This document shows positions 12,674 to 29,082 of a stretch of DNA of 64,000 nucleotides, piece after piece. The stretch covers positions 1 to 64,000 of the forward strand of contig JAAYVI010000117.1 in assembly GCA_012517235.1 (NCBI GenBank), given 5' to 3'. The position numbers were made by a program, and so were the translations under genes. Numbering within the stretch: position 1 is the first letter of the stretch; every line of letters starts with the position of its first letter. The stretch is from Elusimicrobiota bacterium. GTDB taxonomy: Bacteria; Elusimicrobiota; Elusimicrobia; Elusimicrobiales; UBA9959. The notes beneath the pieces were generated by a model, which made no database searches, was not told the origin of the DNA, and saw only the letters and a list, made by a program, of their open reading frames with translations.

Positions 12674-13474
12674 ATGATGGAAGAAAATATAATTAAAATT
12701 TTAAGCGATGCTATAAGCGAAAGAAAAAATGCGGCTTTTATAACGATAATTTCATCGGGCGGATCCACTCCCAGAGACGCGGGTTCCAAAATGATAGTTT
12801 ATGAAAACGGCTCGATAGCCGGGACCATAGGCGGGGGGAAAATAGAAGCTCTTGCGATAAAAACCGCTCTGGATTGTCTTAAAAAAGGGGAAGGCGGAAA
12901 ATTCGTTTTCGATTTGACTCCCAAAGGCATAGGTATGGCCTGTATGGGTAAAGTGGAAATTTTTATAGACATATACAAAACTCCTTTGAAGGTTTTTATT
13001 TGCGGAGGCGGTCATGTGGCTAAACAATTGGCAAAGGTTCTGGATATAGCCGGCTTTCCTTATGCCGTTGCGGACGACAGAGAAGAATTTGCAAATAAGA
13101 ATAATTTTCCGGGCGCTTACGAAATAATAAACGAATTTCCCGACAAGGCTTTCAAAAAAGCGAAAATAGATTCCGATACTTATATAGTCATAATGACCAG
13201 AGGTCATATGCTGGACGCCGAGTGTTTGATAGAAGCGGTTAAAACAAAGGCCGCTTATATAGGAATGATAGGCAGCGCTTCGAAAGTTAGAACTGTTATG
13301 TCGGATCTTAAGAAGAAAGGCGTGAAAATAGATAAAAGAGTCTATTCTCCTATAGGATTGGATTTGGGCGGTAAAACTCCGGGAGAAATAGCCGTATCCG
13401 TAGCGGCAGAAATACTTAAAATACATTACGGCCGAAGCGGAAATCATATGAGCGTAAATTTGGAGGCAAAATGA
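12674..13474 (+). CDS. xdhC: XdhC/CoxI-family molybdenum-cofactor insertion chaperone
   Basis: N-terminal AAFITIISSGGSTPRDAGSKMIV; Rossmann-like VFICGGGHVAKQLA; 4-nt overlap with the downstream Mo-subunit gene. Confidence 0.8.
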   Translation: MMEENIIKILSDAISERKNAAFITIISSGGSTPRDAGSKMIVYENGSIAGTIGGGKIEALAIKTALDCLKKGEGGKFVFDLTPKGIGMACMGKVEIFIDIYKTPLKVFICGGGHVAKQLAKVLDIAGFPYAVADDREEFANKNNFPGAYEIINEFPDKAFKKAKIDSDTYIVIMTRGHMLDAECLIEAVKTKAAYIGMIGSASKVRTVMSDLKKKGVKIDKRVYSPIGLDLGGKTPGEIAVSVAAEILKIHYGRSGNHMSVNLEAK

Positions 13475-15741
13475 GCAAAGATTTATTTTCTTTCGTCGGC
13501 AAATCATTGGAAAGAGTAGACGGCGCGGTTAAAGCCGAAGGCAAAGCTCTTTACGGAGACGACATATCTTTCCCGAATATGATTTACGCGGCGGCGGTTA
13601 GAAATCCCAAACCGAGAATAGAAATAAGAAAAATGGACGATTCTTTGGCAAAAAAAATAAAAGGATATTTCGGCATAGTTTCTTTTAAGGATATAAAAGG
13701 CAAAAACAGCTGGCCTTTGGTTATGAACGATTATCCTTTTTTACCGGAAAAGGAAGCGAAATTTTACGGAGAAACCTTAGCTTTGGTTTTGGCGGAAAAT
13801 CAAAGAACGGCAAAAAAAGCCGCGGCTTGTGTCAGATTGGATTATAAAGAATTGCCTTTTATAGACGATCCTTTGAAAGCTTTGGAAAAAAAATCTTTGA
13901 AAATATACGGCAAAGATAATATCATATCTTCTTTCAAAATAATAAAGGGCGATGCGGATAAAGCTTTTAAAGACTGCGATGTGGTAATAGAAAAAGAATT
14001 TAGGACAAATTATCAAGTCCATGCTTATTTGGAAACTCAAACCGCTACGGCCGTTCCGGAACCCGACGGTTCTATTACGGTTTATTCTTCTACTCAATGT
14101 CCTTTTTACGTATTGGACGCCGTCGCGGCGGCTTGCGGTTTGCCCAATAATAAGGTCAAGGTAATACAAACCGTTACCGGAGGCGGATTCGGCGGTAAAG
14201 AAGACGTGCCGGCTTTGGTTGCGGCTCATGCGGCTATTTGCGCTTTGAAATTTAACCGTCCGGTAAGGCTTGCCTATGACAGAAAGGAAGATTTTATGAG
14301 TATGTCGAAAAGACATCCTTCTTGGGCCAGAGTAAAATACGGCGCCGATAAAAACGGAAAAATAAAGGCTTGTAAAGTTAAATATGTTTTGGACGGCGGC
14401 GCTTATGCTACTTTGTCGCCGATAGTTTTATGGAGAGGGACGGTTCATGCGGCCGGTCCTTATAAAATAGAAAACGTGTTCATAGAAACTTATGCAGCCG
14501 CGACAAATAAAGTCCCCTGCGGAGCTTATAGAGGATTCGGTCAGCCTCAAATATGCTTCGCGCAGGAATCTTTGATAGACGATCTGGCCGAAAAATTGGG
14601 AATAGATCCGATAGATTTAAGACTTAAAAATATGATTCAAAGCGGAGATAAAACCGCTACGGGTCAGAAAATTGACGAATCCTGCGGATTAAAAGAGCTT
14701 ACGGAAATAGTAAGAAAAAAATCAAGATGGGATAAATCCGAAGTTAAAATAAACGGAGACAAAAGAAGAGCTTTGGGTTTTTCTTGCGCTTATTACGGAG
14801 TCGGACTCGGAGCGAAAGGCAGATATTTGGATAGAGCGGGAGCTTTCGTAAACATATACAGAGACGGTTCGGTTCAGGTAAATGTCGGCAATACCGAAAT
14901 GGGACAAGGCGCTTTAACCGTTCTTTCTCAAATAGCCGCGGAAACTCTTAATGCTCCGATGAAAAATATAAAACTTGCCGAAGTAGATACCTCAAAAGTG
15001 CCTGACAGCGGACCCACGGTAGCCAGTAGAACCACTTTGATGAGCGGAAATGCGATAATAGAAGCTTGCCTGCCTTTGAGAGAAAATATATTCTCGGCCG
15101 CCGCCGAACTTTTAAAAGCCGGTAAAAATAAAATTACCGCTTACGGCGGATTTTTTTACTTCGGGAAAAAGAAAATTTCATTCGAAGAAGCGGTAAAGGA
15201 ATGCTGGTCTAAAAGATTAAAGATGAGCGAACAAGGCTGGTATGCGGCTCCCAATACCACATTTGACATAAATAACGGTCAAGGCAATGCTTATGTTATC
15301 TACTCTTATAGCGCCGATATAGCCGATGTGGAAGTGGATATAAAAACCGGCGAAAAGACAGTTCATAAGATATACGCCGCTTACGATGTAGGGCGCATAA
15401 TAAATCCCAAATTGGCTCACGCTCAAGCTCACGGCGGCATACTTCAAGGTATGGGCTGGGCAATAATGGAAAATTTAATAGTAAAAGACGGAATAATGAA
15501 AAATCCTAATTTTACCGATTATGTCCTTCCCATTTCTACCGACGCCCCTCAGTACGATATAAGTTTCTCGGAGAAGCTCTACAAACACGGGCCTTATAAG
15601 GCTAAAGGTATGGGAGAAGTGCCTTTGATAGGGGTGGCTGCGGCGGTAAGAAATGCGGTTAAAAGAGCTTGCGGAGTTTCTCTGACTTATTGTCCTATGA
15701 TATCGGAAAAAACGCTCAAGACGATAAACGACAAAAAATGA
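13471..15741 (+). CDS. xanthine dehydrogenase-family molybdopterin-binding large subunit (set 1)
   Basis: 756 aa; VTGGGFGGKE and GQGALTVLSQIAAETL motifs. Confidence 0.9.
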   Translation: MSKDLFSFVGKSLERVDGAVKAEGKALYGDDISFPNMIYAAAVRNPKPRIEIRKMDDSLAKKIKGYFGIVSFKDIKGKNSWPLVMNDYPFLPEKEAKFYGETLALVLAENQRTAKKAAACVRLDYKELPFIDDPLKALEKKSLKIYGKDNIISSFKIIKGDADKAFKDCDVVIEKEFRTNYQVHAYLETQTATAVPEPDGSITVYSSTQCPFYVLDAVAAACGLPNNKVKVIQTVTGGGFGGKEDVPALVAAHAAICALKFNRPVRLAYDRKEDFMSMSKRHPSWARVKYGADKNGKIKACKVKYVLDGGAYATLSPIVLWRGTVHAAGPYKIENVFIETYAAATNKVPCGAYRGFGQPQICFAQESLIDDLAEKLGIDPIDLRLKNMIQSGDKTATGQKIDESCGLKELTEIVRKKSRWDKSEVKINGDKRRALGFSCAYYGVGLGAKGRYLDRAGAFVNIYRDGSVQVNVGNTEMGQGALTVLSQIAAETLNAPMKNIKLAEVDTSKVPDSGPTVASRTTLMSGNAIIEACLPLRENIFSAAAELLKAGKNKITAYGGFFYFGKKKISFEEAVKECWSKRLKMSEQGWYAAPNTTFDINNGQGNAYVIYSYSADIADVEVDIKTGEKTVHKIYAAYDVGRIINPKLAHAQAHGGILQGMGWAIMENLIVKDGIMKNPNFTDYVLPISTDAPQYDISFSEKLYKHGPYKAKGMGEVPLIGVAAAVRNAVKRACGVSLTYCPMISEKTLKTINDKK

Positions 15742-15837
15742 TGGGATATTTTAATTTTTGAGGATATGCCTGTTACATAAGTTAAATGAAAAAAAACGGT
15801 AAAATATGCTATTATTAATCTTTGGAGGTTTCCATAT

Positions 15838-16986
15838 ATGTTTAAAAAATTAATTTTGTCTTTGATTTTGTTGTCTTCTTCCGTTTATGCTCAAGACTCT
15901 TACGATAAATTGGCTTCGGAACTGTCTTCAAAATCCGAAGGTATAAAAAAGTTGGCCATAATACCCTTTTCCTACGCCGATAATACTTCTTCCACAAAAG
16001 ACGGCGCCGTCATAGCGGAAAGATTGACAATGAAGCTTATTAATATGCAGAAGTTTGAAATAATAGAAAGAAGCGTATTGAATAAAGTTTTGGACGAATT
16101 AAAACTTCAAAATTCGGGAGCCATAGACGCCGGCAGCGCGAAAGAACTCGGAAAAGTTTTGGGCGTGGACGCTCTTATAACCGGAACTTTGATACCTACC
16201 GCTTCCGGAATAGAAGTTAATGCCAGAGTTATAAAAACGGAAACCGCTCAAGCCATAGCCGCTTCTCAAGTTACCGTACAGAAGGATTGGTACGGCGGCG
16301 ACGTACAGGCTATGCCTCAAAAGACGGAATATCAACAGCCGCAAGCTCAAACGCAGAAACAGCCGATATCTCGAGTAAGAAGCCCTAACGAATACGGATT
16401 TTTTGACGTTATGGTAGGCGCCGGTTCTCAAACGGTGGATATAAAATGGGATACTACAAAATTCGGCGGTTTAGAAATGAACGCTCTCACGGCCAGCGGA
16501 GGCGGACCAATAGGCCTTAGGGTCGGCGGCTTCGGCAAAGGCGTGGTAGGCGGAGATTTTGAATTTTCGGTATCTAAACATTATACCGACGCTCAAAAAG
16601 GCACAATAACTTTTCCTCTTATAGCCAATGTCAATTATCCAGCCGGATTAATAGACGCCACTTCCATAGGCCTTAGCGGAGACTTGCTTTTTAGAACTTT
16701 GACAAAAGCTCAATTCTATTTGGGTATAGGTTTGGGACTGTCTATAAATAATATACAATCTACCGTAATAAAAGACTACTATAATAAGCTTTTGAACGAG
16801 ACCGCCGTAGGATTTATGTTTAGAGTACCGATAGGTTTGAGATTTAACGCCGATAATGTCACTTTCTTTATGGAATATAGGGCGGAAATTAACGCTACGA
16901 GCTTTAACAGAGGATTCGGAAACGAAACTAATAATCTTACTTTCAACGGTTCGAGATTTGTTTTCGGAGTGGGATCTAAATTCTAA
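15838..16986 (+). CDS. outer-membrane protein: periplasmic CsgG/LpoB-like N-terminal domain plus Gly-rich beta-barrel-like C-terminal half
   Basis: signal peptide ending AQD; N-terminal domain paralogous to that of the 8172-10421 protein; C-terminal residue is Phe (RFVFGVGSKF). Confidence 0.6.
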   Translation: MFKKLILSLILLSSSVYAQDSYDKLASELSSKSEGIKKLAIIPFSYADNTSSTKDGAVIAERLTMKLINMQKFEIIERSVLNKVLDELKLQNSGAIDAGSAKELGKVLGVDALITGTLIPTASGIEVNARVIKTETAQAIAASQVTVQKDWYGGDVQAMPQKTEYQQPQAQTQKQPISRVRSPNEYGFFDVMVGAGSQTVDIKWDTTKFGGLEMNALTASGGGPIGLRVGGFGKGVVGGDFEFSVSKHYTDAQKGTITFPLIANVNYPAGLIDATSIGLSGDLLFRTLTKAQFYLGIGLGLSINNIQSTVIKDYYNKLLNETAVGFMFRVPIGLRFNADNVTFFMEYRAEINATSFNRGFGNETNNLTFNGSRFVFGVGSKF

Positions 16987-16988
16987 AA

Positions 16989-17453
16989 ATGAAAAAATTT
17001 CCGCTTAGCTGCGAAATTAACGGTAAAAAAATAAAAAAGGAAATAGATTCTTCTTTAAGACTAATAGATTTCATAAGAGAAGATATGGGCCTTAAAGGCA
17101 CCAAAGAAGGCTGCGGCGAAGGCGAATGCGGTGCCTGTATGGTTTTGCTCGACGGTAAAGCCGTAAATTCCTGTCTTATGATGGCCGTTCAAATACATGG
17201 CAAGAAATTGGTTACCATAGAGGGAATACACGAACATAAATACGGCAAAGAACTTCAAGATTCCTTTGTAAAAGAGGCCGCCGTGCAATGCGGTTTTTGT
17301 ACGCCGGGTTTTATAATAGCCGCTCAGGAAATACTTGCAAAAAATCCCAAAGCCTCTTTGGAAGAAATTAAAGAAGGTCTTGCCGGTAATTTATGCAGAT
17401 GCACCGGATATGAAAATATTTTTAAAGCCGTAGATAAAGCTCGTAAGAAGTAA
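16989..17453 (+). CDS. xanthine dehydrogenase-family [2Fe-2S] small subunit (set 1)
   Basis: CGEGECGACMV...SCLM and QCGFCTPGFII...GNLCRCTGY. Confidence 0.9.
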   Translation: MKKFPLSCEINGKKIKKEIDSSLRLIDFIREDMGLKGTKEGCGEGECGACMVLLDGKAVNSCLMMAVQIHGKKLVTIEGIHEHKYGKELQDSFVKEAAVQCGFCTPGFIIAAQEILAKNPKASLEEIKEGLAGNLCRCTGYENIFKAVDKARKK

Positions 17454-17471
17454 AATTTACTATTTGAGAAT

Positions 17472-18314
17472 ATGCCGGAAATAATAGAAAAATACTATTC
17501 TTTAAAAGAACTTTGGTCTTCCTTAAATAAACTTAATAAAAGCAGAAAATATTTGGCGGGCGGAACGGATTTAACAATATCTTTGTCTTACGGCGAAGAA
17601 AAAACCGAACTTTGGATAGATATAAGCGACATAAAAGAGTTGTCCTTGATAGAGGATAGGAAAGAATTCGTATTTATAGGCGCCGGAATTAAAGTTTCTC
17701 AGCTTGAAAATAATCCGATAGTGAAAAAATGGGTTCCCGCTTTGGCCGAAAGCGTTAAATATTACGCTTCGCCTTCTATTAGAAATACGGCCACTTTGGG
17801 CGGAAATTACGTAAACGCTTCGCCTTGCGCGGACGGAGTTTTAGCTTTGGCGGCTTCTCAAGCTTCGGTCGTTTTAAACCTGAAAAACCGAAGAAGAACT
17901 TTGCCTTTGCTTTCTATTATAAAAGGGCCTAAAAAAATAGATTTAAAAAAAGACGAAATAGCCGAAGGATTTTTGGTACCGAAAATAAAACACGAAGCCG
18001 TTTTTTACAAAATGATGGCAAGAAAAAGATTCGGTATTTCCAAGGCCGGACTTTGTATATGCTATAGGGCGAATAATAAAAAATTAGAATATGTATCTAT
18101 CGCTTTGTCTTCGGTCGCTCCTTCGATAGTAAAGGCGCCAAAAACCGAAGAATTCCTGAAAAATAAGAAAATCGATCAAAATATCGTAAAAAAAGCCTGT
18201 GAAATTATTAAAAGCGAGATAAGTCCGATCGACGACATACGTTCTCAAGCGGAATATAGAAAAGAAATAATTTCCGTTTTCTTGCAAAGAGCTTTGCAAA
18301 AAACTATAGGTTAA
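17472..18314 (+). CDS. xanthine dehydrogenase-family FAD-binding subunit (set 1)
   Basis: YLAGGTDL and TLGGNYVNASPCAD motifs (FAD_binding_5-like). Confidence 0.85.
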   Translation: MPEIIEKYYSLKELWSSLNKLNKSRKYLAGGTDLTISLSYGEEKTELWIDISDIKELSLIEDRKEFVFIGAGIKVSQLENNPIVKKWVPALAESVKYYASPSIRNTATLGGNYVNASPCADGVLALAASQASVVLNLKNRRRTLPLLSIIKGPKKIDLKKDEIAEGFLVPKIKHEAVFYKMMARKRFGISKAGLCICYRANNKKLEYVSIALSSVAPSIVKAPKTEEFLKNKKIDQNIVKKACEIIKSEISPIDDIRSQAEYRKEIISVFLQRALQKTIG

Positions 18315-18341
18315 TTTTTAAAAGTTAAAAGCGGAGGAATA

Positions 18342-20033
18342 ATGAAAATTAAATTTCTTTTGACCGGCGTTTTATTTTTTCTTTCTTCTTTTTCTTATTG
18401 TCAGGAAGACGTAATTTTGAAAGCCGCCAAGAAAGAGTTAAACCGTTCTTTTTCGGAACTTAAAAATGCGGAAAAAGCCCCTCTTTATTTCCTTCAATAC
18501 GAAATATGGCAAGATAAAAACTATTGGGTATCCGCCAATTTGGGCGCTTTGGTTTCCGAAGGAGAAAACGAGCAAAATACCGCTACGGCCGACATAAGAA
18601 TAGGTTCGAGAGAATTGGATAATACTCACGAGATAAAAGGCAAAGAAAGCAGAAACTGGGAATCAAATTCCAAAGAGATAGAAACGGAACTTTTGACTAA
18701 AGGCGACGAAAATGCGATAAGGGCCAAACTTTGGAATCTCACCGATGCGGCTTACAAGGACGCTCTTAACAAATATATGAAGGTAGAGGCCAATAAACAG
18801 GTTACGGCCGGCGAAGAAGATAAGAGCGGAGATTTTTCTCAGGAAAAAACTACAGACGTTTATTACTCCAAAGCGGAAGATATAAAAATAGACAAAGACG
18901 AGATGAGAAAAAAAATAAAAGAGCTTTCTCTTATTTTCAAGAAATACGATTTTATACTGAATTCCTGGACGAGTTTTTCATTGGAATCTCAAAACAGATA
19001 TATAGTCAATTCCGACGGCGCGGAAATAGTAGCCGGAAATAATTACATGAGCATATCTTACGGACTTACGGCGAGAACTACCGACGGTATGGACTTAAGC
19101 AGAAATAAACAATATCATTTTGACAAAGTTTCCGACATTCCTTCTTTTGAAAAAATAGCGGCCGACATGGAAAATTCCGTAAAAGAACTAAAAGCTTTGA
19201 TCGGTTCTCCGTCTCAAGAACCTTATACCGGACCCGCCATATTGGAAAATCAAGCCGCGGCCGTATTTTGGCACGAAATATTCGGACATAGAATAGAAGG
19301 ACACAGACAAAAAAGCGAAAGCGAAGGTCAGACATTCGCAAAGAAAATAGGCGAAAAAATAATGCCGGATTTTTTAAATATCTACGACGATCCGAATATA
19401 AGATATTTTAAAGGAAAATTTTTAAGAGGATATTATTCTTACGACGACGAAGCCGTAAGGGCGCAAAAAGCTTCATTGGTGGAAAAAGGAGTTTTAAAAG
19501 GATTTTTGATGCAGAGAGTCCCTCTGGAAAAATTCCCCAAATCTAACGGTCACGGAAGAAGAAGCGAAGGCAATATGACTGTCGCCAGACAGGGCAATCT
19601 CATAGCCGAGTCTTCCAATAAAGTGCCTTACGAAAAACTCAGAGAAATGCTTTTGGATGAAGTCAAAAAACAAGGAAAACCCTACGGAATAATAATAAAA
19701 GACATAGCCGGCGGCTTTACCATAACTCAAAGATTCCTTCCTCAAAGCTACACTATCTTGATAAAATACGCGGTTAGAGTATATCCCGACGGCCGTCTAG
19801 ACGAGCCCATAAGAGGACTTAATATGATAGGTACGCCTTTGCAGACATTCGGACGAATTTTAGCCGCAGCCGACGACGACGACATATTTAACGGCACATG
19901 CGGCGCGGAATCGGGGTGGGTGCCTGTGTCCGCCGTAAGCCCGAGCCTTTTATTTTCCGAAATAGAAACGGAAAAACTTCAGAAATCAAACGAGATGCCG
20001 CCGATACTTAAAAATCCGATTTTTGAAAAATAA
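18342..20033 (+). CDS. secreted TldD-like metallopeptidase (TldD/PmbA family with HExxGH)
   Basis: signal peptide MKIKFLLTGVLFFLSSFSYCQ; catalytic-type motif FWHEIFGHRIEGH; 563 aa. Confidence 0.75.
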   Translation: MKIKFLLTGVLFFLSSFSYCQEDVILKAAKKELNRSFSELKNAEKAPLYFLQYEIWQDKNYWVSANLGALVSEGENEQNTATADIRIGSRELDNTHEIKGKESRNWESNSKEIETELLTKGDENAIRAKLWNLTDAAYKDALNKYMKVEANKQVTAGEEDKSGDFSQEKTTDVYYSKAEDIKIDKDEMRKKIKELSLIFKKYDFILNSWTSFSLESQNRYIVNSDGAEIVAGNNYMSISYGLTARTTDGMDLSRNKQYHFDKVSDIPSFEKIAADMENSVKELKALIGSPSQEPYTGPAILENQAAAVFWHEIFGHRIEGHRQKSESEGQTFAKKIGEKIMPDFLNIYDDPNIRYFKGKFLRGYYSYDDEAVRAQKASLVEKGVLKGFLMQRVPLEKFPKSNGHGRRSEGNMTVARQGNLIAESSNKVPYEKLREMLLDEVKKQGKPYGIIIKDIAGGFTITQRFLPQSYTILIKYAVRVYPDGRLDEPIRGLNMIGTPLQTFGRILAAADDDDIFNGTCGAESGWVPVSAVSPSLLFSEIETEKLQKSNEMPPILKNPIFEK

Positions 20034-20045
20034 TTTGGAGGAAAA

Positions 20046-21731
20046 ATGAATATAATTTTAGCCGTTTTTTTAATTTTGACAGCTTCGAATATCAAGGCTC
20101 AAGAGGATAATGTTTTAAAAGCCGTTTCCGACGAGGTAAATAGAACCGCGGCAAAGCTTAAAATAGAAAAATCTTCCGCTCCTTATTTCGCTTCGTGTTA
20201 CGTAGCCGACAGTTCGGAGACTTATATTTCGGCTTCTTTCGGAGAAATAAAGGAAAGCAAGTCTTATTTTAACAGAAACGGCAGATTTGAAGTCAGAATA
20301 GGAAACGAAATGTTTGACAGTTCTCATTATATTTCCAATTTCAGAGATTATAGGCCCGTATTTAGGAATTTGCCGGTTGAAGACGATTATGACAGCATAA
20401 GAAAAAGTCTTTGGCTTATGGCCGACGAAGCTTATAAAATCGCCGTTGAAAGATATTCTCAAAAAGAAGCTTATAGAAAGAAAAAAGACATAAAAGAAAT
20501 TTACGGAGATTTAAGTATTGAAAAACCGAACAGGTATTTTGAAAAAAATTCTTCTTGCGGAAATTTGGATAAACAGAGATGGGAGAAAAGACTTAAGAAT
20601 ATTTCTCAATTATTTAGAAAATATCCCAATATTTCAGATTCCGACATAAATGCCAGATTTTCTTCGGTAACCAGAAGGTTTTCCGATTCTCAAGGCTTTT
20701 CGTATAAAACATATTCCTGCGAAGCTTATGTTTCTATTTTTGTCTATATGCAGAACGAAGAAGGATATAAATTGAAAGACAATAAAGATTTTCTATATGC
20801 TTCGTGGAAAGAGGCGGAAGAGGATAATATAGAAGCGAAGGCGGAAGAATATGCGAAGTCATTAAACGATTCGTATAAAGCGGAAAAGATAGATTATTAT
20901 GTGGGTCCGGCTCTTTTCACTCAAGAAGCCGCGGCCGAATTTTTAAATCAGCTTTTTGTAAGAAATATTTCTTTCAATCCGAAACCCTGGGCCGATAAAG
21001 ACGAATGGCTCAAGTATTATTATGAAATTCCCAAATTAAAAGACAGAATAGGCAAAAGAATTTTGCCGGGATTTATTTGGGTTTACGACGATGCTAAGGC
21101 AAAAGAATACGAAGGCAGGAAACTTGCCGGATATTATGAGATAGATTCCGAAGGAATAGCGCCTTTGAAATTAGAACTGGTAAAAAAAGGAAAACTCGAA
21201 ACGATATACGCTTCCAGAAATCCCGACGAAAAAATAAGAAATTCCAACGGAAGGGGGAGAGCTTCTTATAATTTTTTCCCTTATGCTACCGCGGCAAACG
21301 TTTTCTTTATGTCGGATAAAAAATTAGATTCGCCTTCGGTAAAAGAAAAATTAATTTCTCTGGGAAAAGAACAGGAATTGGATTATGTTCTCGTAGTAAA
21401 GAAAATCGCTTCCTACAAAGATTCCGAAAGCAATCTCGGCAATCCTATTTTGGCTTATAAATTGGATCTTAAAACGGGCAAAGAAACTCCTTTAAACATA
21501 TCGGAATTCGAAGGGATAGGCCTCAGGGCTTTAAGAGACATCGAAGCGGTTTCTTCAAAAAATCAGGTGTATAATTTTTACCAGAGAGGCCCGTATTCGT
21601 ATTCGGCAAGCGCCGTACCTACTTCTATTATTTGTCCTCAAGACATATTAATCAGAGAAATAGAAATAAAGAAAACTCAGGATAAACCGGAAAAAAAACC
21701 GTATCTCAAACATCCGTATTTTACCAAATAG
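20046..21731 (+). CDS. secreted TldE/PmbA-like partner lacking HExxGH
   Basis: signal peptide MNIILAVFLILTASNIKAQ; same architecture as the upstream gene but LNQLFVRN occupies the HExxGH position. Confidence 0.65.
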   Translation: MNIILAVFLILTASNIKAQEDNVLKAVSDEVNRTAAKLKIEKSSAPYFASCYVADSSETYISASFGEIKESKSYFNRNGRFEVRIGNEMFDSSHYISNFRDYRPVFRNLPVEDDYDSIRKSLWLMADEAYKIAVERYSQKEAYRKKKDIKEIYGDLSIEKPNRYFEKNSSCGNLDKQRWEKRLKNISQLFRKYPNISDSDINARFSSVTRRFSDSQGFSYKTYSCEAYVSIFVYMQNEEGYKLKDNKDFLYASWKEAEEDNIEAKAEEYAKSLNDSYKAEKIDYYVGPALFTQEAAAEFLNQLFVRNISFNPKPWADKDEWLKYYYEIPKLKDRIGKRILPGFIWVYDDAKAKEYEGRKLAGYYEIDSEGIAPLKLELVKKGKLETIYASRNPDEKIRNSNGRGRASYNFFPYATAANVFFMSDKKLDSPSVKEKLISLGKEQELDYVLVVKKIASYKDSESNLGNPILAYKLDLKTGKETPLNISEFEGIGLRALRDIEAVSSKNQVYNFYQRGPYSYSASAVPTSIICPQDILIREIEIKKTQDKPEKKPYLKHPYFTK

Positions 21732-21752
21732 CCTATTTTTATTCTCTTAATC

Positions 21753-21804
21753 GGTGACAATTATCCGACGGCCGTCTAATAACTGTCACCTTTGGTTTCT
21801 ATTT
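21753..21804 (+). terminator. rho-independent terminator after the TldE-like gene
   Basis: GGTGACAATTATCCGACGGCCGTCTAATAACTGTCACC stem-loop followed by TTTGGTTTCTATTT. Confidence 0.6.
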
Positions 21805-21904
21805 ATTGATGGCGGGAATTTTAAAAAAGACGGATGAGAACGTATTTTAACTAAAGCCATTTTTCGGTTATTTTTATATAATATTTTTATTAATAGGAGG
21901 GAGT

Positions 21905-22738
21905 GTGAATATAAAACAAGTTTATTTCCCAAAAACTCTCAAAGAGGCTTTGTCTTTAACAAAGAAAAAAAATTCGGTTTTCATAGCCGGTTCTTCTTAT
22001 TCTTTTAAAAATATCCCGTCTCAAGCGGAGATAGCGGTAATGGGTTCGAATTTGCCTCTGACTTACATAAAAAAAGATTCCAAAAACTTAATTCTGGGAG
22101 CCGGCGCGACATTCGCCGATATGGAGGAAAACAAAATTTGTAAAACTCTTTTCGGAGGAGTACTTGCAAAAGCCGCTTCGGCTTGCTCAAGCCAGCTTAT
22201 AAGGAATATGGCTACGGTAGGCGGAAATCTCGCTCATCCCAACGCTTTTAATCTTATGCCTTTGCTATGTTCCTGTATGGACGCAAAAGTTAAAATAATG
22301 TCTTCTTCGGGAACTAAAACTGTTTTATGGAAAGAAATATACGGCGGAAAATATAAAGCGGGAAAAGATTTTCTCATAACCGAAATCCTTTTCCCTTTGT
22401 CTTATTCCAAAAATATTTTTTATTTTGAGAAGGTTTCTAAAATAAAATCTTCCTGGGATTCTTATATAACCGTCTGTTTTTCTCTCGAACTTAAAAAATC
22501 GGCGGTTAAAAATATATCTTTGGCTTTTTCCGCTTTGAGAGCCATACCCATAAGAGCTTTAGAAGCCGAAAAAAAACTCATAGGCAAAACGCTCGACTCT
22601 CAAACGATAAGCGAGGCCGCCGATTTATGCGCTCAAGAAATACTTTCCGTTCACAAAGGTTCTTCGTGGGAGTATAAGGCGAAACTCGCCGGGAATTTGA
22701 CTTCTTATTTTCTTTCTACGGCCGCGGAGGCAAAATGA
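21905..22738 (+). CDS. xanthine dehydrogenase-family FAD-binding subunit (set 2, divergent)
   Basis: GTG start with AGGAGG ribosome-binding site; ATVGGNLAHPNAF...LLCSCMDAKV; the AGGTDL position reads AGSSY. Confidence 0.75.
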   Translation: MNIKQVYFPKTLKEALSLTKKKNSVFIAGSSYSFKNIPSQAEIAVMGSNLPLTYIKKDSKNLILGAGATFADMEENKICKTLFGGVLAKAASACSSQLIRNMATVGGNLAHPNAFNLMPLLCSCMDAKVKIMSSSGTKTVLWKEIYGGKYKAGKDFLITEILFPLSYSKNIFYFEKVSKIKSSWDSYITVCFSLELKKSAVKNISLAFSALRAIPIRALEAEKKLIGKTLDSQTISEAADLCAQEILSVHKGSSWEYKAKLAGNLTSYFLSTAAEAK

Positions 22739-23235
22739 AAAGCGAAAATCTTACTTTAAATAAAAACGGGAAATTCGAAATAAATTTTACTCTTAACGGA
22801 AAAGAAATTTCCGCGCAAGTAAAACCTAAAGAAACTTTATTGGAAGCTTTAAGAGCTTTGGGTTATAAAGGCACAAAGAAAGGATGCGACACCGGAGATT
22901 GCGGTTCTTGCGCGGTAATTTTTAACGGAAAACCTAAAGTATCTTGTCTTATGCCGGCTTTCGCCGCGCATAAAGCCGAGATAATTACGATAGAAGGTAT
23001 AGGAAGCGTTTCCAAACCTCATCCGATACAGGAAGCTTTTGTCGAAGCCGGCGCCGTGCAATGCGGATACTGCATACCCGGAATGATAATTTCTACGAAA
23101 GCGCTTTTGGATAAAAATCCGAATCCGAGCGAAGAAGAGATAAAGCATTCTTTGGACGGCAATCTCTGCAGATGCACCGGATATGTGAAACAAATAGAAG
23201 CGGTTAAATTAGCCGCCAAGAAATTGGCGAAATAA
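22735..23235 (+). CDS. xanthine dehydrogenase-family [2Fe-2S] small subunit (set 2)
   Basis: CDTGDCGSCAVI...SCLM and QCGYCIPGMII...GNLCRCTGY. Confidence 0.9.
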   Translation: MKSENLTLNKNGKFEINFTLNGKEISAQVKPKETLLEALRALGYKGTKKGCDTGDCGSCAVIFNGKPKVSCLMPAFAAHKAEIITIEGIGSVSKPHPIQEAFVEAGAVQCGYCIPGMIISTKALLDKNPNPSEEEIKHSLDGNLCRCTGYVKQIEAVKLAAKKLAK

Positions 23236-23246
23236 TCGGAGAAAAT

Positions 23247-25571
23247 ATGAACGAAACAAAAAATTTCAAATGCGTAAACAAGAGAGTGGCTAAAATAGAT
23301 TCTTTGGGTTTGGCCTGCGGCGAACCGATGTTTGCCGACGACATAGATATAAAAGGACTTCTTCACGCAAAAATTTTATGGAGTCCTCACGCTCATGCCA
23401 AAATAAAAAACATAGACGTTTCCAAAGCTTTGAAAATAAAAGGCGTAAAAGCGGTTTTAACTTATAAAGACGTGCCGAGAATACCTCATACCACGGCCGG
23501 ACAGGGTTATCCCGAACCTTCTCCCTACGACACTTATGTTTTGGACAATAAAGTAAGATATGTCGGAGACAGAGTAGCCGCCGTTGCCGCGGAAACTCTT
23601 GAAGCCGCTGAAGAAGCTTTGGCCGCGATAAAAGTGGATTATGAAATTTTGCCGGCCGTTTTCGATCAGTTGGACGCTTTAAAGGACGGCGCGCCGGTAA
23701 TACACGACGAAAAAGATTCTAAAAATATTCCGGACGCAAAAAGAAATATAGCGGCAAAATTCGATTTTGAAGTCAAAAATTCGGAATGGTTCAAAGAAGC
23801 CGACTATGTGATAGAACAAACATACAGAATACCTTACTTTCAACATTGCGCCATAGAGCCGCATACCACTATCTGTTATTTCGATCATCAAAACAGATTG
23901 ATAATAAGAACCTCCACTCAGGTGCCTTTCCATGTTAGAAGAATAGTGGCTCAGGCATTAAACATACCGGTTAAAAACATAAGAGTGATAAAACCGAGAA
24001 TAGGAGGAGGATTTGGTTCAAAACAGGAAGTTTTGGAAGACATAGTAGCCGCTCTGGCTTTGAAAACCAATAACCCGGTTAAATTGGAATATACCAGAAA
24101 AGAAGTTTTTGTTTCTTCGAGAACCAGACATCCGGCATTCATGCGTCTTAAAACCGGAGTAAAAAAAGACGGAACAATAACCGACGCCGATATGGAAATA
24201 ATATTAAATACCGGCGCCTACGGCTCTCACGCTCTTACGGTTATGATGTGTTCCGGTTCGCATACCATTCCGATGTATAAAGTGAAAAATAATATAAGAT
24301 TTTCCGGCAAAAGCGTATACACAAATATGCCTGTGGCCGGAGCTTATAGAGGATACGGAGCTACTCAGGGATTTTACGGCTGGGAAACTCAGATGGATAT
24401 GATGGCCGAAAAAATCGGCATGGATCCCGTGGAATTTAGAAAGAAAAACTATATAAAATTGGGAGAAGGCTCTCCCGTTTTTAAGGCTATGGGCGAAGGC
24501 AGGGAAGGCGTAGAACAGGTTATAACTTCCATAGGCCTCGACGAAGCCATAGAAAGAGGACTGAAAGAAATAAAATGGTACGATAAAAAAGCCGAATATG
24601 AAAAATTCAATAAAACCTCTTCAAGAATAAAAAAAGGTTTGGGTATGGCTTGCCTTATGCAGGGTTCGGGTATTCCGGAAATAGATATGGCCAGCGCAAC
24701 CATAAAAATGAACGAAGACGGCTCTTTCAATCTTTCCGTCGGCGCGACCGATCTGGGCACCGGTTCCGATACCATACTTGCTCAAATAGCCGCAGAGGTA
24801 TTATGTGTGCCCAATACCGACATAATAGTTTATTCTTCCGACACGGATCTTACGCCTTTTGACGTAGGAGCTTACGCTTCCAGCACGACTTTTATTTCGG
24901 GAAACGCCGTAAGAAAAACCGCCGAAAAAGTAAGAGATATGATAATAGAAGTGGCGGCTAAAATATTGGAGGAAAAAGCGGAGAATTTATATTTGGCCGA
25001 CAAACATGTTTTCTCCAAAGACGGCAAAAAGGTTTCTTTCTCTGAAGTAGCCAATACTTCTTTATACTACTACAATCAGCATCAAATAATAGCCAGCGCT
25101 TCCCATACCGCGCATACGTCTCCGCCGCCTTTTTCGGCTCATTTTGCCGACATAGAAGCCGATACGGTAACGGGGGAAATAACCGTTAAAGAATATGTTT
25201 CCTGCATAGACTGCGGTACGGCCGTAAATCCTACTTTGGCGGAAGGTCAAAACGACGGCGCGGTTGTAAACGGAATAAGCCATACATTGGCGGAAGGTCT
25301 TGAATTTTCTCCAAACGGCACGCCTCTAAACGCCAATTTCAGGCGATATAAAATATTTACTTCAAAAGACATAGAAAAAATTAAAACCATACTTATTCCG
25401 ACTTACGAACCCAACGGACCTTTCGGCGCCAAGTCGGTTTCCGAAATAGGCATAAACGGACCTTTGCCGGCTATAAACAATGCCATTTACGACGCTTTAA
25501 AAATAAGGCTTTTCGAAGCGCCTTTTACTCCCGACAAAGTCCTTTCCGCCTTGGAGAAAAAAGTCGGATAA
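23247..25571 (+). CDS. xanthine dehydrogenase-family molybdopterin-binding large subunit (set 2)
   Basis: 774 aa; IGGGFGSKQE motif. Confidence 0.9.
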   Translation: MNETKNFKCVNKRVAKIDSLGLACGEPMFADDIDIKGLLHAKILWSPHAHAKIKNIDVSKALKIKGVKAVLTYKDVPRIPHTTAGQGYPEPSPYDTYVLDNKVRYVGDRVAAVAAETLEAAEEALAAIKVDYEILPAVFDQLDALKDGAPVIHDEKDSKNIPDAKRNIAAKFDFEVKNSEWFKEADYVIEQTYRIPYFQHCAIEPHTTICYFDHQNRLIIRTSTQVPFHVRRIVAQALNIPVKNIRVIKPRIGGGFGSKQEVLEDIVAALALKTNNPVKLEYTRKEVFVSSRTRHPAFMRLKTGVKKDGTITDADMEIILNTGAYGSHALTVMMCSGSHTIPMYKVKNNIRFSGKSVYTNMPVAGAYRGYGATQGFYGWETQMDMMAEKIGMDPVEFRKKNYIKLGEGSPVFKAMGEGREGVEQVITSIGLDEAIERGLKEIKWYDKKAEYEKFNKTSSRIKKGLGMACLMQGSGIPEIDMASATIKMNEDGSFNLSVGATDLGTGSDTILAQIAAEVLCVPNTDIIVYSSDTDLTPFDVGAYASSTTFISGNAVRKTAEKVRDMIIEVAAKILEEKAENLYLADKHVFSKDGKKVSFSEVANTSLYYYNQHQIIASASHTAHTSPPPFSAHFADIEADTVTGEITVKEYVSCIDCGTAVNPTLAEGQNDGAVVNGISHTLAEGLEFSPNGTPLNANFRRYKIFTSKDIEKIKTILIPTYEPNGPFGAKSVSEIGINGPLPAINNAIYDALKIRLFEAPFTPDKVLSALEKKVG

Positions 25572-25677: not shown

Positions 25678-26841
25678 ATGGAAATAAATAACATAATAAG
25701 AAATTTTGAGGAAATCCATAAAAGACTTATAGACTCTCTGCCGCAAAGAATAAGGCCGGTAAGTTTGGAATCGAATATAAGCGAAAAGAGAGCGGTTATA
25801 GTGTACGGACTTAGGGGAGTCGGTAAAACCGTATTTCTTTTAAATGCGTCTAAAAACAAAAATTTTCTTTATTTCTCCGCGGATAACCCTTTAATATATA
25901 ATATCCCCATAATAGAGTTAATCGATAAAATATTTAAATCCGGTTATGACGGAGTAGTAATAGACGAGATTCATTTTTCTAAGGATTGGGCGGCCCATTT
26001 GAAATCCGCTTATGACAGTTATCCTTCAAAAACAATATGGGTAAGCGGCAGCAGCAATCTTGTTTTGAAAAAAGGCCTTGCCGATTTATCGAGAAGATTT
26101 TTGTCCGTACATCTTCCTTTGCTTTCTTTTAGAGAATATATATATTTAAAAGAAGGGATAATGCTGGATAAGATAAATCTATTTGAGAGCATAAAAAACT
26201 ACGATAATATTAAATCTAAAAAAATAAATGTTTTAAAACTTTTTAAAGAACATATAAACGGCGGAATAAGGCCGATATTTTATGAAGGCGATTATAGTGA
26301 AAGGCTTAAAAATATGATTGAAAAAAGTGTTTTTTACGACATTCCTTTTTACATAAATACGATTACCGACAATTATTTAAGATTAATGAACGGCATAATC
26401 GGCCATTTGATAACTTCTCCTATCCCGACCTTAAATATCTCAAAAATGACCTCCGAGTGGGAGATAGGCAAACATAAATTGTATTTTTTGCTTGAAATTA
26501 TGGACAAAATGGAATTGATAAAAATTATAAAACCTAAAAATAAAAAACATACATATACAAAGGGCTCAAAAATATTTTTGACCGACTCTTCGATATATTC
26601 TTGTTTTAACGGAAATCTGGGAAATATAAGAGAATCCTATTTCGTAAACTCCGTTTCCAAATCCTATCCGATTTGTTCAAGCGAAAACGAAGATGAGTAT
26701 GATTATCTGGTCGGCGATTTAAAATTGGAAATAGGCGGCAAATCTAAATCGCTTAAAAAAGCCGATTTTGTCATAAGCGACGATATTGAAATGCCGGTTA
26801 AAAATAGAATACCTTTGTGGATGGCGGGACTTACTTACTAA
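25678..26841 (+). CDS. AAA-type ATPase of the AAA_14/DUF4143 family
   Basis: Walker A YGLRGVGKT; Walker B VVIDEIH; gene is visibly lower in GC than its neighbours. Confidence 0.7.
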   Translation: MEINNIIRNFEEIHKRLIDSLPQRIRPVSLESNISEKRAVIVYGLRGVGKTVFLLNASKNKNFLYFSADNPLIYNIPIIELIDKIFKSGYDGVVIDEIHFSKDWAAHLKSAYDSYPSKTIWVSGSSNLVLKKGLADLSRRFLSVHLPLLSFREYIYLKEGIMLDKINLFESIKNYDNIKSKKINVLKLFKEHINGGIRPIFYEGDYSERLKNMIEKSVFYDIPFYINTITDNYLRLMNGIIGHLITSPIPTLNISKMTSEWEIGKHKLYFLLEIMDKMELIKIIKPKNKKHTYTKGSKIFLTDSSIYSCFNGNLGNIRESYFVNSVSKSYPICSSENEDEYDYLVGDLKLEIGGKSKSLKKADFVISDDIEMPVKNRIPLWMAGLTY

Positions 26842-28335: not shown

Positions 28336-29082
28336 ATGGAAAACATATTAAGCGGAGCATTTGCGTCTTTTGCGGCGGGAATGGCCACTTTATTGGGCGC
28401 TTTGCCCGTTTTTTTTCTTAAAAAAGAGCTTTCTCATAAGTCGTATTCCGCCATGCTGGGTATCTCGGGCGGGATAATGCTGGCCGCTACTTTTTTTAGC
28501 CTTCTTATCCCGGCCATAGAAAGAGGCGGGGCTTATACCGCGGCGGCGGGATTCCTTTCGGGAGTTCTATTTATAGAACTTGCCGCAAGGTTTATACCTC
28601 ACGAACATTTTTTTAAAGGCAAAGAAGGTCCGAAGGCTAACATAAAAAGAATAGTTCTTTTCGCTCTGGCCATAACCATACATAATTTTCCCGAAGGGAT
28701 GAGCGTAGGAGTCGCTTGGGCCTTGCCGGAAAGAGCCAAAGCTATGTCTTTGGCTTTCGGCATAGGAATACAGAATATCCCCGAAGGAGCTTCCATAGCT
28801 CTTCCTCTTTTGGCTTTGGGTTATTCTCCCGCTTATTGTTTTTTTATTTCTTTTTTAAGCGCCGTAGTCGAACCCGTAGGCGGACTTATAGGCATTACCG
28901 CCGTAACTTTTTTTTCTTCTTTTTTGCCTTTCGCTCTGGCTTTTGCTTCCGGATGTATGCTTTATGTGATAAGCGGAGAAATGATACCGGAATCTCACGA
29001 AAAAGGTTACGGCAAATTGGCTACATGGTGGCTTGTGATAGGTTTTGTGATAATGATGCTTTTGGATAATCTTTTCGGATAA
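28336..29082 (+). CDS. zupT: ZIP-family zinc transporter
   Basis: HNFPEGMSVG and GIQNIPEG motifs; 248 aa. Confidence 0.85.
   Translation: MENILSGAFASFAAGMATLLGALPVFFLKKELSHKSYSAMLGISGGIMLAATFFSLLIPAIERGGAYTAAAGFLSGVLFIELAARFIPHEHFFKGKEGPKANIKRIVLFALAITIHNFPEGMSVGVAWALPERAKAMSLAFGIGIQNIPEGASIALPLLALGYSPAYCFFISFLSAVVEPVGGLIGITAVTFFSSFLPFALAFASGCMLYVISGEMIPESHEKGYGKLATWWLVIGFVIMMLLDNLFG

Follow-up and report, generated by a model that had tools for sequence, protein, structure and literature searches.

Why should a protease of the TldD/TldE type carry predicted signal peptides on both of its subunits? This question is raised by two adjacent genes, here called A and B, at positions 18342-21731 of a 64,000-nucleotide (nt) stretch of Elusimicrobiota DNA (contig JAAYVI010000117.1, positions 1 to 64,000 of the forward strand; hereafter the window). 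TldD/E is known as a chambered protease of the cytoplasm, which acts in microcin B17 maturation, in CcdA degradation and in leader removal from peptides that are made on ribosomes and modified after translation, RiPPs (PMC5810440, PMC10885120). The original prediction, made from the DNA letters alone, took A and B for a secreted and enlarged relative of this enzyme in which one paralog keeps the metal site and the other has lost it. Our analysis leads us to suggest, with a probability of roughly 70%, that an exported metallopeptidase of the TldD/TldE type (MEROPS family M103) is encoded here, with A and B as its two subunits.

Two paralogous genes and their N-termini

The two genes, their ribosome-binding sites and their predicted signal peptides are located as follows:

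18342..20033, + strand: gene A, predicted exported TldD-like catalytic subunit; open reading frame of 563 amino acids (aa), MEROPS M103 / PmbA_TldD family
20046..21731, + strand: gene B, predicted exported, catalytically dead partner with a TldD/E fold; open reading frame of 561 aa
18333..18337, + strand: Shine-Dalgarno sequence GGAGG of gene A, 4 nt 5' of the ATG, read from the sequence
20037..20041, + strand: Shine-Dalgarno sequence GGAGG of gene B, 4 nt 5' of the ATG, read from the sequence
18342..18401, + strand: predicted Sec signal peptide of A, residues 1-20, MKIKFLLTGVLFFLSSFSYC, cleavage before QED (from hydrophobicity, homologs and model confidence)
20046..20102, + strand: predicted Sec signal peptide of B, residues 1-19, MNIILAVFLILTASNIKA, cleavage before QED (from hydrophobicity, homologs and model confidence)

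The stop of A and the start of B are 12 nt apart, and both products have the length of about 560 aa that had been predicted. A and B align with each other from end to end at 26% identity (E 9e-50), and are thus full-length paralogs; both match the Pfam model of the PmbA/TldD C-terminal domain (PF19289, cut-off 22 bits), A with 107.5 bits (7.2e-31) and B with 48.4 bits (8.3e-13). A is 100% identical to a protein from a metagenome-assembled genome (MAG) deposited at NCBI as 'TldD/PmbA family protein [Elusimicrobia bacterium]'; the same MAG contig, of 122 kb, also carries the identical counterpart of B, which is named 'hypothetical protein'. The homologs of B across Elusimicrobiota are 40-68% identical to it and under purifying selection, which indicates that B is being maintained rather than decaying. 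No further TldD-like genes were found within the window.

The simplest way to explain away a hydrophobic N-terminus is a mis-called start, in which case A and B would be ordinary cytoplasmic TldD and TldE; the original prediction had itself named this as its weak point. Nothing was found in favour of this explanation. Reading upstream from the ATG in frame, one meets a stop after just 9 (A) and 4 (B) codons, the ATG is the first start codon and is preceded by GGAGG, and the next Met is residue 146 in A and residue 89 in B; both lie inside a conserved domain that is modelled with high confidence, and starting there would cost 88-145 residues of it. The hydrophobic N-terminus is moreover conserved across phyla, and in the natural A-B fusions described below it is kept only at the N-terminus of the whole chain. 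We thus give mis-called starts practically no weight.

Both N-termini open with a brief stretch that is basic or neutral, continue with 12-15 residues that form a hydrophobic core, and have small residues at positions -3 and -1. The best 10-residue stretch on the Kyte-Doolittle scale reaches 2.67 in A and 3.30 in B, compared to 1.49 in E. coli TldD and 1.40 in TldE. After the predicted cleavage, mature A and B would begin with a shared motif, QED-x-[IV]LKA. In the structure models, the confidence score pLDDT (predicted local distance difference test) is ~50 for residues 1-20 of both proteins, and then at least 89 in A and 96 in B; the fold opens right after residue 20 with a helix, and with a motif common to both families, D-x-[VL]L-x-A[ML]-x-x-E[LM]-x-R. 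An equivalent, signal-peptide-like N-terminus is found in 116 of 120 homologs of A and in 41 of 48 homologs of B; the homologs that lack a Sec-like N-terminus are truncated or over-extended gene calls, or are of the twin-arginine (Tat) type. The signal-peptide call for A and B rests on composition, on conservation among homologs and on the fusions, and on these grounds we are confident that both proteins are exported. The claims of N-terminal signal peptides on both paralogs, and of apparent export to the periplasm or surface, have in this respect held up well, with export signals conserved in both families.

The Tat-type cases include three B homologs with 28% identity (P0159-P0161), which begin MAPFSRRHFLIAAGLSAPA and carry a twin-arginine signal (SRRHFL) in place of a Sec signal. 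Part of the B family may, to judge from these N-termini, be exported already folded. Tat-signal TldD/PmbA annotations are common in Bacteroidota genomes.

A and B were also considered as lipoproteins, a possibility that we rejected: Cys20 of A follows F-S-Y, which is no lipobox, and lipobox-like motifs are rare in homologs (6 of 120 for A, 5 of 48 for B). A and B are thus more probably soluble exported proteins than lipoproteins. A TolC-like outer-membrane factor and exported proteins that resemble CsgG/LpoB are also encoded in the window; these fit a diderm envelope, so that the default destination of A and B would be the periplasm.

Fold and metal site

AlphaFold2 models of both proteins are of high confidence (pLDDT 90.8 and predicted TM-score 0.89 for A; 91.9 and 0.90 for B). 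The top match in a Foldseek search of the PDB is in both cases E. coli TldD (5nj5_A), with E 2.6e-32 and TM 0.76 for A and with E 5e-24 and TM 0.71 for B; TldE/PmbA chains match at E 1.1e-27 to 5.3e-22 (A) and 6e-23 to 6e-19 (B). Each model has 16 significant PDB matches, all of them TldD, TldE or PmbA chains, matched over the full length with target-normalised TM-scores of 0.73-0.79 for A and 0.64-0.75 for B, while the next best matches have E > 0.01. A sequence search with B against the PDB gave no match. As modelled, both A and B have the complete two-domain TldD/E fold.

Canonical TldD/TldE proteins had been put at about 450-480 aa, which agrees with the 481 aa of E. coli TldD and the 450 aa of TldE. 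The predicted mature lengths are ~543 aa for A and ~542 aa for B, so the description of the paralogs as enlarged is correct in that they are longer (by ~60 and ~90 aa), but the increase is modest and adds no new domain; each model is a single compact fold. The extra residues are distributed over the N-terminal domain, loops and a conserved C-terminal tail of ~25 residues: by alignment boundaries, A is longer than TldD by ~29 residues in its N-terminal half, to which the C-terminal domain adds ~17 and the C-terminal tail ~16, while the surplus of B over TldE lies mainly beyond the SNGHGR motif. The Pro-rich tails are conserved in both families (...PPILKNPIFEK in A, ...KPYLKHPYFTK in B) and are modelled with lower confidence; we speculate that they lie at the subunit interface.

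The clearest difference between the two paralogs is in the metal site:

19272..19289, + strand: HEIFGH, the HExxxH metal-binding/catalytic motif of A, residues 311-316; aligns to HEAVGH, residues 262-267, of E. coli TldD
19899..19901, + strand: codon of Cys520 of A, in GTCGAESG; aligns to Cys454 of E. coli TldD
20946..20963, + strand: NQLFVR, the degenerate counterpart of HExxxH in B, residues 301-306, from the A/B alignment

The metal ligands of E. coli TldD are His262 and His267 of the HExxxH motif together with Cys454, and TldE has none of them (PMC5810440). In A all three have a counterpart: the first paralog keeps the zinc motif as predicted, and adds Cys520 as the third ligand. His311, Glu312 and His316 are invariant across 53 homologs, and Cys520 is at least 90% conserved in the same set. 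The family can be recognised by the signature HE[IV]xGHRxEGHRQK near the active site and GxCGAESG in the distal part. By sequence, A has what defines a catalytic TldD subunit, an HExxxH motif with a distal Cys (or Asp) as metal ligand.

In B, both His and the catalytic Glu are gone at this position. The concern that a motif had been overlooked in the second paralog proved unfounded: no HExxxH occurs anywhere in B, there is no Cys at the aligned position equivalent to Cys454, and the B-family alignment has no conserved His or Cys at ligand positions. The motif is likewise absent from 86 of 89 single-domain B-type representatives and from the B halves of all 60 fusions. In this respect B resembles a TldE/PmbA subunit, having the TldD/E fold with no metal ligands.

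The surroundings of the site in A are not those of E. coli TldD in every respect. In the E. coli enzyme a salt bridge between Asp272 and Lys456 tethers the clamp (PMC5810440); in the exported A family these residues are replaced by a nearly invariant His321 and Ala522 (19293-19304, residues 318-321; 19905-19907, residue 522). His321 belongs to a pattern, HExxxHxxEGH, that places a third conserved His beside the metal site, while Glu270 of E. coli TldD is kept as Glu319.

Fusions, pairing and gene neighbourhood

If A and B act together, this should be visible in relatives. We searched 1.84 billion representatives, clustered at 50% identity, with a hidden Markov model (HMM) of the B family, and obtained 6573 matches at E <= 1e-3 and 2113 at E <= 1e-30; as the A and B families are homologous, these counts include the A family. 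Among the 149 best B-profile representatives, 60 (~40%) are single-chain fusions of A and B, always with A first. These fusions have ~1100 aa, arranged as signal peptide, A domain, linker and B domain (e.g. P0288, P0289 and P0291, in the range P0288-P0433). In 59 of 60 the HExxxH motif is confined to the first half. A hydrophobic N-terminal signal is present in 50 of 56 full-length fusions, and in 53 of the 56 the junction has no hydrophobic segment; the median of the maximal hydrophobicity is 0.69 at the junction versus 2.64 at the N-terminus. The junction itself consists of the A tail (KPPxLxxP), a short hydrophilic linker, mostly of 16-35 residues, and the first helix of B.

We considered whether the fusions might be artefacts of read-through or frameshift. 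Read-through would retain the B signal peptide at the junction; since 53 of 56 lack it, the great majority must be real, while two (P0309 and P0323) do look like frameshift artefacts. Such 'Rosetta stone' fusions suggest that A and B act together, at a 1:1 ratio and in the same compartment.

The arrangement of the separate genes tells the same story. One genome per GTDB species was scanned with the A signature (HEI[FL]GHRxE; [VIT]F[NY]GxCGAES), which gave at least 596 confirmed relatives of A; the locus counts that follow refer to the best 80 of these, with 40-63% identity. These 80 loci come from Elusimicrobiota, Acidobacteriota, Planctomycetota, Myxococcota, Verrucomicrobiota, Kapaibacteria (Bacteroidota), Gemmatimonadota, Alpha- and Gammaproteobacteria, Melainabacteria, Calditrichota and Eisenbacteria. 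A search for similar secreted pairs in other diderm anaerobes had been proposed; many such pairs exist across diderm phyla, and they are not peculiar to anaerobes. By a strict count, 72 of 80 loci have an HExxxH-bearing A-like reading frame followed on the same strand by a B-like one that lacks the motif. In three of the other eight the contig stops just past A, four do have a B-like gene (three with over-extended starts of the reading frame, one with the gene 900 nt downstream), and a single locus has no partner, so that the order A then B holds in 76 of the 77 loci with room for it. The two reading frames overlap by 4 bp in several loci, and four distant loci that were inspected singly have the same anatomy, with signal peptides on both genes.

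Some relatives depart from the plain two-gene form. A Gammaproteobacteria MAG (L075:4398-11432) has the tandem A, B, A, B, in which the whole module is duplicated. In Planctomycetota and Eisenbacteria, A-like proteins occur with ~400 extra N-terminal residues (L017:31-2958; P0104, 979 aa; P0285, 938 aa), which could be a real domain or an over-extended gene call.

The partnership could nevertheless be looser than this, with A active alone or as a homodimer and B in a separate role, e.g. as periplasmic binding protein, chaperone or inhibitor. A TldD homodimer from Sulfolobus has been reported to be active (PMC3497727), and the partnerless locus mentioned above (L028:120-1847) has an A-like gene with no adjoining B. 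The convergent genes after this A-like gene resemble pilus or type II secretion components, and its 'Clostridia' label may be a binning error. Set against a separate role for B are the 60 fusions and the 76 of 77 A-then-B loci, which argue for an obligate 1:1 function, the requirement of E. coli TldD for TldE in order to be active (PMC5810440), and the complete fold that B retains. We therefore consider independent action of A quite improbable, and judge from gene arrangement that A and B very probably form an obligate complex. The original idea of an active/inactive heterodimer thus receives indirect but strong support.

The immediate neighbourhood of the pair in the window consists of two paralogous gene sets of the xanthine-dehydrogenase (XDH)/aldehyde-oxidase type (12674-25571), with a mirror-like order of subunits around A and B:

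12674-13474: XdhC
13471-15741: Mo subunit, first XDH-type set
15838-16986: exported CsgG/LpoB/FlgO-like and DUF3996 protein, with signal peptide
16989-17453: 2Fe-2S subunit, first set
17472-18314: FAD subunit, first set
21753..21790, + strand: hairpin GGUGACA...UGUCACC with a U-rich stretch, possible terminator, from RNA folding; 22 nt after the B stop
21905-22738: FAD subunit, second set
22735-23235: 2Fe-2S subunit, second set
23247-25571: Mo subunit, second set

The hairpin is weak evidence for a terminator, as its z-score is only -1.4 and a simple terminator scan does not list it. Given this setting, the pair might serve the flanking XDH-like molybdoenzymes, either in their maturation or in a shared catabolic pathway for purines or peptides. 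The genes appear to form a single operon, with a 27-nt gap and no detected terminator between the first FAD-subunit gene and gene A, and the order recurs in a relative with ~63% identity in A (L001: XdhC, Mo, CsgG-like, FeS, FAD, A, B, FAD, FeS, Mo); in a second relative (L008; A also ~63% identical) XDH-type subunit genes flank the pair. Such neighbours are, however, confined to these two relatives, the closest ones with gene context, with none in six other Elusimicrobiota loci or in other phyla among the best 80 loci. The collinearity between the window and L001 moreover extends to glutamine synthetase and efflux-pump genes and so looks like general genome collinearity, and the XDH subunits in the window have no signal peptides, which would place them in a different compartment from the predicted one of A and B. 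We judge the association to be lineage-specific synteny, and a role of the pair in the service of XDH to be very improbable.

Several other features of this region may be mentioned. The CsgG/LpoB/FlgO-like exported protein inserted between the Mo and FeS genes is odd within an operon for a cytoplasmic enzyme; a second such exported protein within 8 kb (8172-10421, 749 aa) has a CsgG/LpoB/FlgO-like N-terminal domain and six WG_beta_rep repeats. Between the second XDH-like set and the glutamine synthetase gene there is a gene for an AAA_14-type ATPase (25678-26841); the otherwise collinear locus L001 lacks it, and it may have been inserted in this lineage only. At 6.6 kb downstream of the pair, a zinc transporter of the ZIP family is encoded (28336-29082), and in another locus a cation-efflux (CDF) transporter gene lies directly downstream of it (L004:11670-13103); the proximity of such transporters to a pair of metalloenzyme genes may be coincidence.

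Across the 80 loci, upstream neighbours are heterogeneous and neighbours in general vary by lineage; with 69 neighbours upstream and 65 downstream scanned against Pfam, no conserved third gene emerged. Only two kinds of neighbour recur, both downstream of the pair and essentially all in Acidobacteriota. In Bryobacterales and Terriglobia, an LptF/LptG-type permease for lipopolysaccharide (LPS) export (~770 aa) is encoded directly downstream on the same strand in 16 of the 65 cases, with gaps to the pair of typically 5-16 nt. In 7 of 65, from relatives of 'Acidoferrum', the downstream neighbour is a PASTA-domain protein of ~240 aa. The loci concerned include L024, L033, L041, L046, L048, L049, L052 and L059, and further L064, L072, L073, L077, L081, L083 and L085, with the gene after the pair at ~11.4-13.8 kb in locus coordinates. 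These neighbours hint at an envelope connection in Acidobacteriota.

Proposed function and comparison with known systems

Taken together, we propose the following mechanism. Cleavable Sec signal peptides (Tat in some relatives) would direct A and B across the inner membrane, and once freed of them the two would be soluble in the periplasm, where the mature proteins would assemble 1:1 into a hollow shell like that of E. coli TldD/E. A would supply the single active site, with His311, His316 and Cys520 holding Zn or Fe and with Glu312 as the general base; B, with the same fold and no metal site, would complete the chamber. By analogy to E. coli TldD/E, a narrow channel would admit only unfolded peptide ends, and the peptide would be held by sequence-independent, β-strand-like contacts to its backbone and cut stepwise. 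The likeliest role would be the breakdown of oligopeptides in the periplasm, be it for nutrition or for clearing fragments of envelope proteins.

How far this analogy reaches deserves some caution, and a number of observations weigh against our proposal. Neither A nor B matches the Pfam domain PmbA_TldD_1st at E <= 0.01, and the cut-offs of the TldD/PmbA NCBIfam equivalog models are missed by a wide margin (88.5 bits vs 635; 23 vs 438); with scores so far under these cut-offs, transferring function from E. coli crosses a large evolutionary distance. The replacement of Asp272/Lys456 by His321/Ala522 means that the geometry of the active site of A may differ from that of E. coli TldD. One locus, as described above, has A and no adjoining B. 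Finally, enzymes like TldD/E can be amidases instead of peptidases: the family is reported to include N-deacetylases, to judge from the title of a 2022 review by Vobruba et al. (cited in PMC10885120).

This last point leads to a different chemistry for the same exported complex: A and B could be an amidase or deacetylase that acts on a non-peptide or envelope substrate, e.g. LPS, peptidoglycan or a lipoprotein intermediate. Precedent would come from the TldD/E-like N-deacetylases of lincosamide biosynthesis; the LptF/LptG and PASTA neighbours in Acidobacteriota would fit such a substrate, and so would the altered clamp-tethering residues of A. The linkage to LptF/LptG and PASTA is, however, lineage-specific, being absent from the window and from most phyla, and the HExxxH-plus-Cys site of A is the one that E. 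coli TldD uses on peptides (PMC5810440). We thus regard an envelope amidase as unlikely, and by analogy with the E. coli enzyme consider a peptidase to be rather more probable than another kind of amidase.

Where the exported metallopeptidase stands within its family is a separate question, which we addressed with E. coli TldD and TldE as the only canonical comparison sequences. In profile comparisons the A family is closest to TldD (5.6e-17, versus 1.6e-5 for TldE) and the B family, only marginally, to TldE (4.1e-9, versus 5.9e-5 for TldD); the fold search, in contrast, puts B slightly nearer to TldD (5e-24 vs 5e-22). The best NCBIfam match of A is the archaeal TldD model NF040952 (4e-25, 88.5 bits, cut-off 635), the bacterial TldD model NF008006 gives 43 bits (cut-off 513), and B has no match among the NCBIfam models, including that of TldE/PmbA (NF008268). 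The second PmbA_TldD domain of Pfam (PF19290) scores 20.1 bits in A, just under its cut-off of 20.9, and is absent from B. Among curated models, then, A reaches no NCBIfam cut-off and B matches none, and only the generic Pfam C-terminal domain passes; in terms of sequence A is TldD-like, but by the NCBI criterion not an ortholog.

The canonical proteins are much more distant from A and B than these two are from one another. An HMM of the B family scores A with 402 bits, but E. coli TldE and TldD with only 26.8 and 11.2 bits; an HMM of the A family scores B with 239 bits and E. coli TldD with 72.6 bits. The N-domain of A matches that of B at E 9e-17, while neither matches the N-domains of E. 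coli TldD or TldE. B may thus be a TldD-like paralog that has lost its activity, and not an ortholog of TldE. We consider it possible, though tentative on sequence comparison, that the exported pair is a distinct and ancient clade of M103, in which the dead subunit arose by duplication of an exported TldD-like gene, independently of TldE. It is also possible that an ancestral TldD/TldE pair gained signal peptides and then underwent slow (co-)evolution.

A full-text literature search that covered few subscription journals returned no study of exported, periplasmic or Tat-dependent TldD/PmbA/U62 proteins; an earlier mention of exported TldD/E is possible in the 2022 family review (Microbiol Res 265:127186), which lay outside this search. 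In databases the relatives are called 'TldD/PmbA family protein', 'metallopeptidase TldD-related protein', 'peptidase U62' or 'predicted Zn-dependent protease'. The pair represents an exported form, yet to be characterised, of a known kind of protease, and belongs to a large family that is not unique to this genome. The only experimental hint of export comes from the outer-membrane-vesicle proteome of Myxococcus xanthus, which lists MXAN_2519, 'Peptidase U62' (PMC4158809); the A/B family is present in Myxococcaceae MAGs (L080, P0169-P0214), but a homolog search with a Myxococcaceae member matched only MAG proteins, and a link of MXAN_2519 to the family could not be established. If it were a true member, it would be the first experimental sign of export.

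Should the exported clade be confirmed, it would place a stepwise, 'pencil-sharpener' mechanism in the periplasm of many environmentally dominant but poorly studied diderm phyla, where it could contribute to peptide nutrition or to the turnover of envelope proteins. If the clade is also distinct, it would stand for a kind of self-compartmentalised peptidase of the periplasm that had not been recognised before and that occurs widely in non-model diderm phyla (among them Acidobacteriota, Planctomycetota, Myxococcota and Elusimicrobiota), and would raise the evolutionary question whether a dead subunit has arisen twice. The separate genes and their natural fusions offer a ready system for asking why the inactive partner is needed. 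Generic names such as 'TldD/PmbA family' or 'modulator of DNA gyrase' are misleading for the A/B family, and a subfamily model built on HE[IV]xGHRxEGHRQK ... GxCGAESG together with the signal peptide would improve annotation.

Among the systems that have been characterised, E. coli TldD/TldE (PDB 5NJ5; Ghilarov et al. 2017, PMC5810440) shares with A/B the full-length fold, the combination of an HExxxH-plus-Cys subunit with a ligand-free partner and, to judge from gene arrangement, paired function. The E. coli proteins have no signal peptides, whereas A, B and most of their homologs have segments that by sequence resemble them; the tldD and tldE genes of E. coli are ~1 Mb apart, whereas A and B are adjacent, and often fused in relatives. 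A and B are also ~60 and ~90 residues longer, with the conserved Pro-rich C-terminal tail, and nearer to each other (239-402 bits) than to the E. coli proteins (11-73 bits).

The TldE/PmbA homodimers of known structure, 1VL4 (T. maritima), 1VPB (B. thetaiotaomicron), 3QTD (P. aeruginosa) and 6J6A (T. kodakarensis), have, like B, the TldD/E fold with no catalytic site, and match the B model at E 6e-23 to 2e-19. B differs from them in being ~110-130 residues longer than their chains (428-442 residues), in its predicted signal peptide, in being an end-to-end paralog of its neighbour, and in having TldD as its best fold match. The archaeal TldD homologue Sso0660 of Sulfolobus solfataricus, a zinc protease of the TldD type, has an HExxxH motif like A, but is reported to be active as a homodimer, with no dead partner (PMC3497727; discussed in PMC5810440).

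The TldD/E-like proteins of natural-product pathways, which remove RiPP leaders or scaffolds or act as the lincosamide N-deacetylases LmbIH and CcbIH, resemble A/B in being paired, encoded side by side and devoted to one job. They are, however, cytoplasmic and belong to biosynthetic clusters; no precursor-peptide or biosynthetic genes adjoin A and B in the window, nor are there any beside their counterparts in the 80 related loci. We suggest that A and B follow the plan of an active subunit with a dead partner that is known from E. coli TldD/TldE, in a form that would work outside the cytoplasm.

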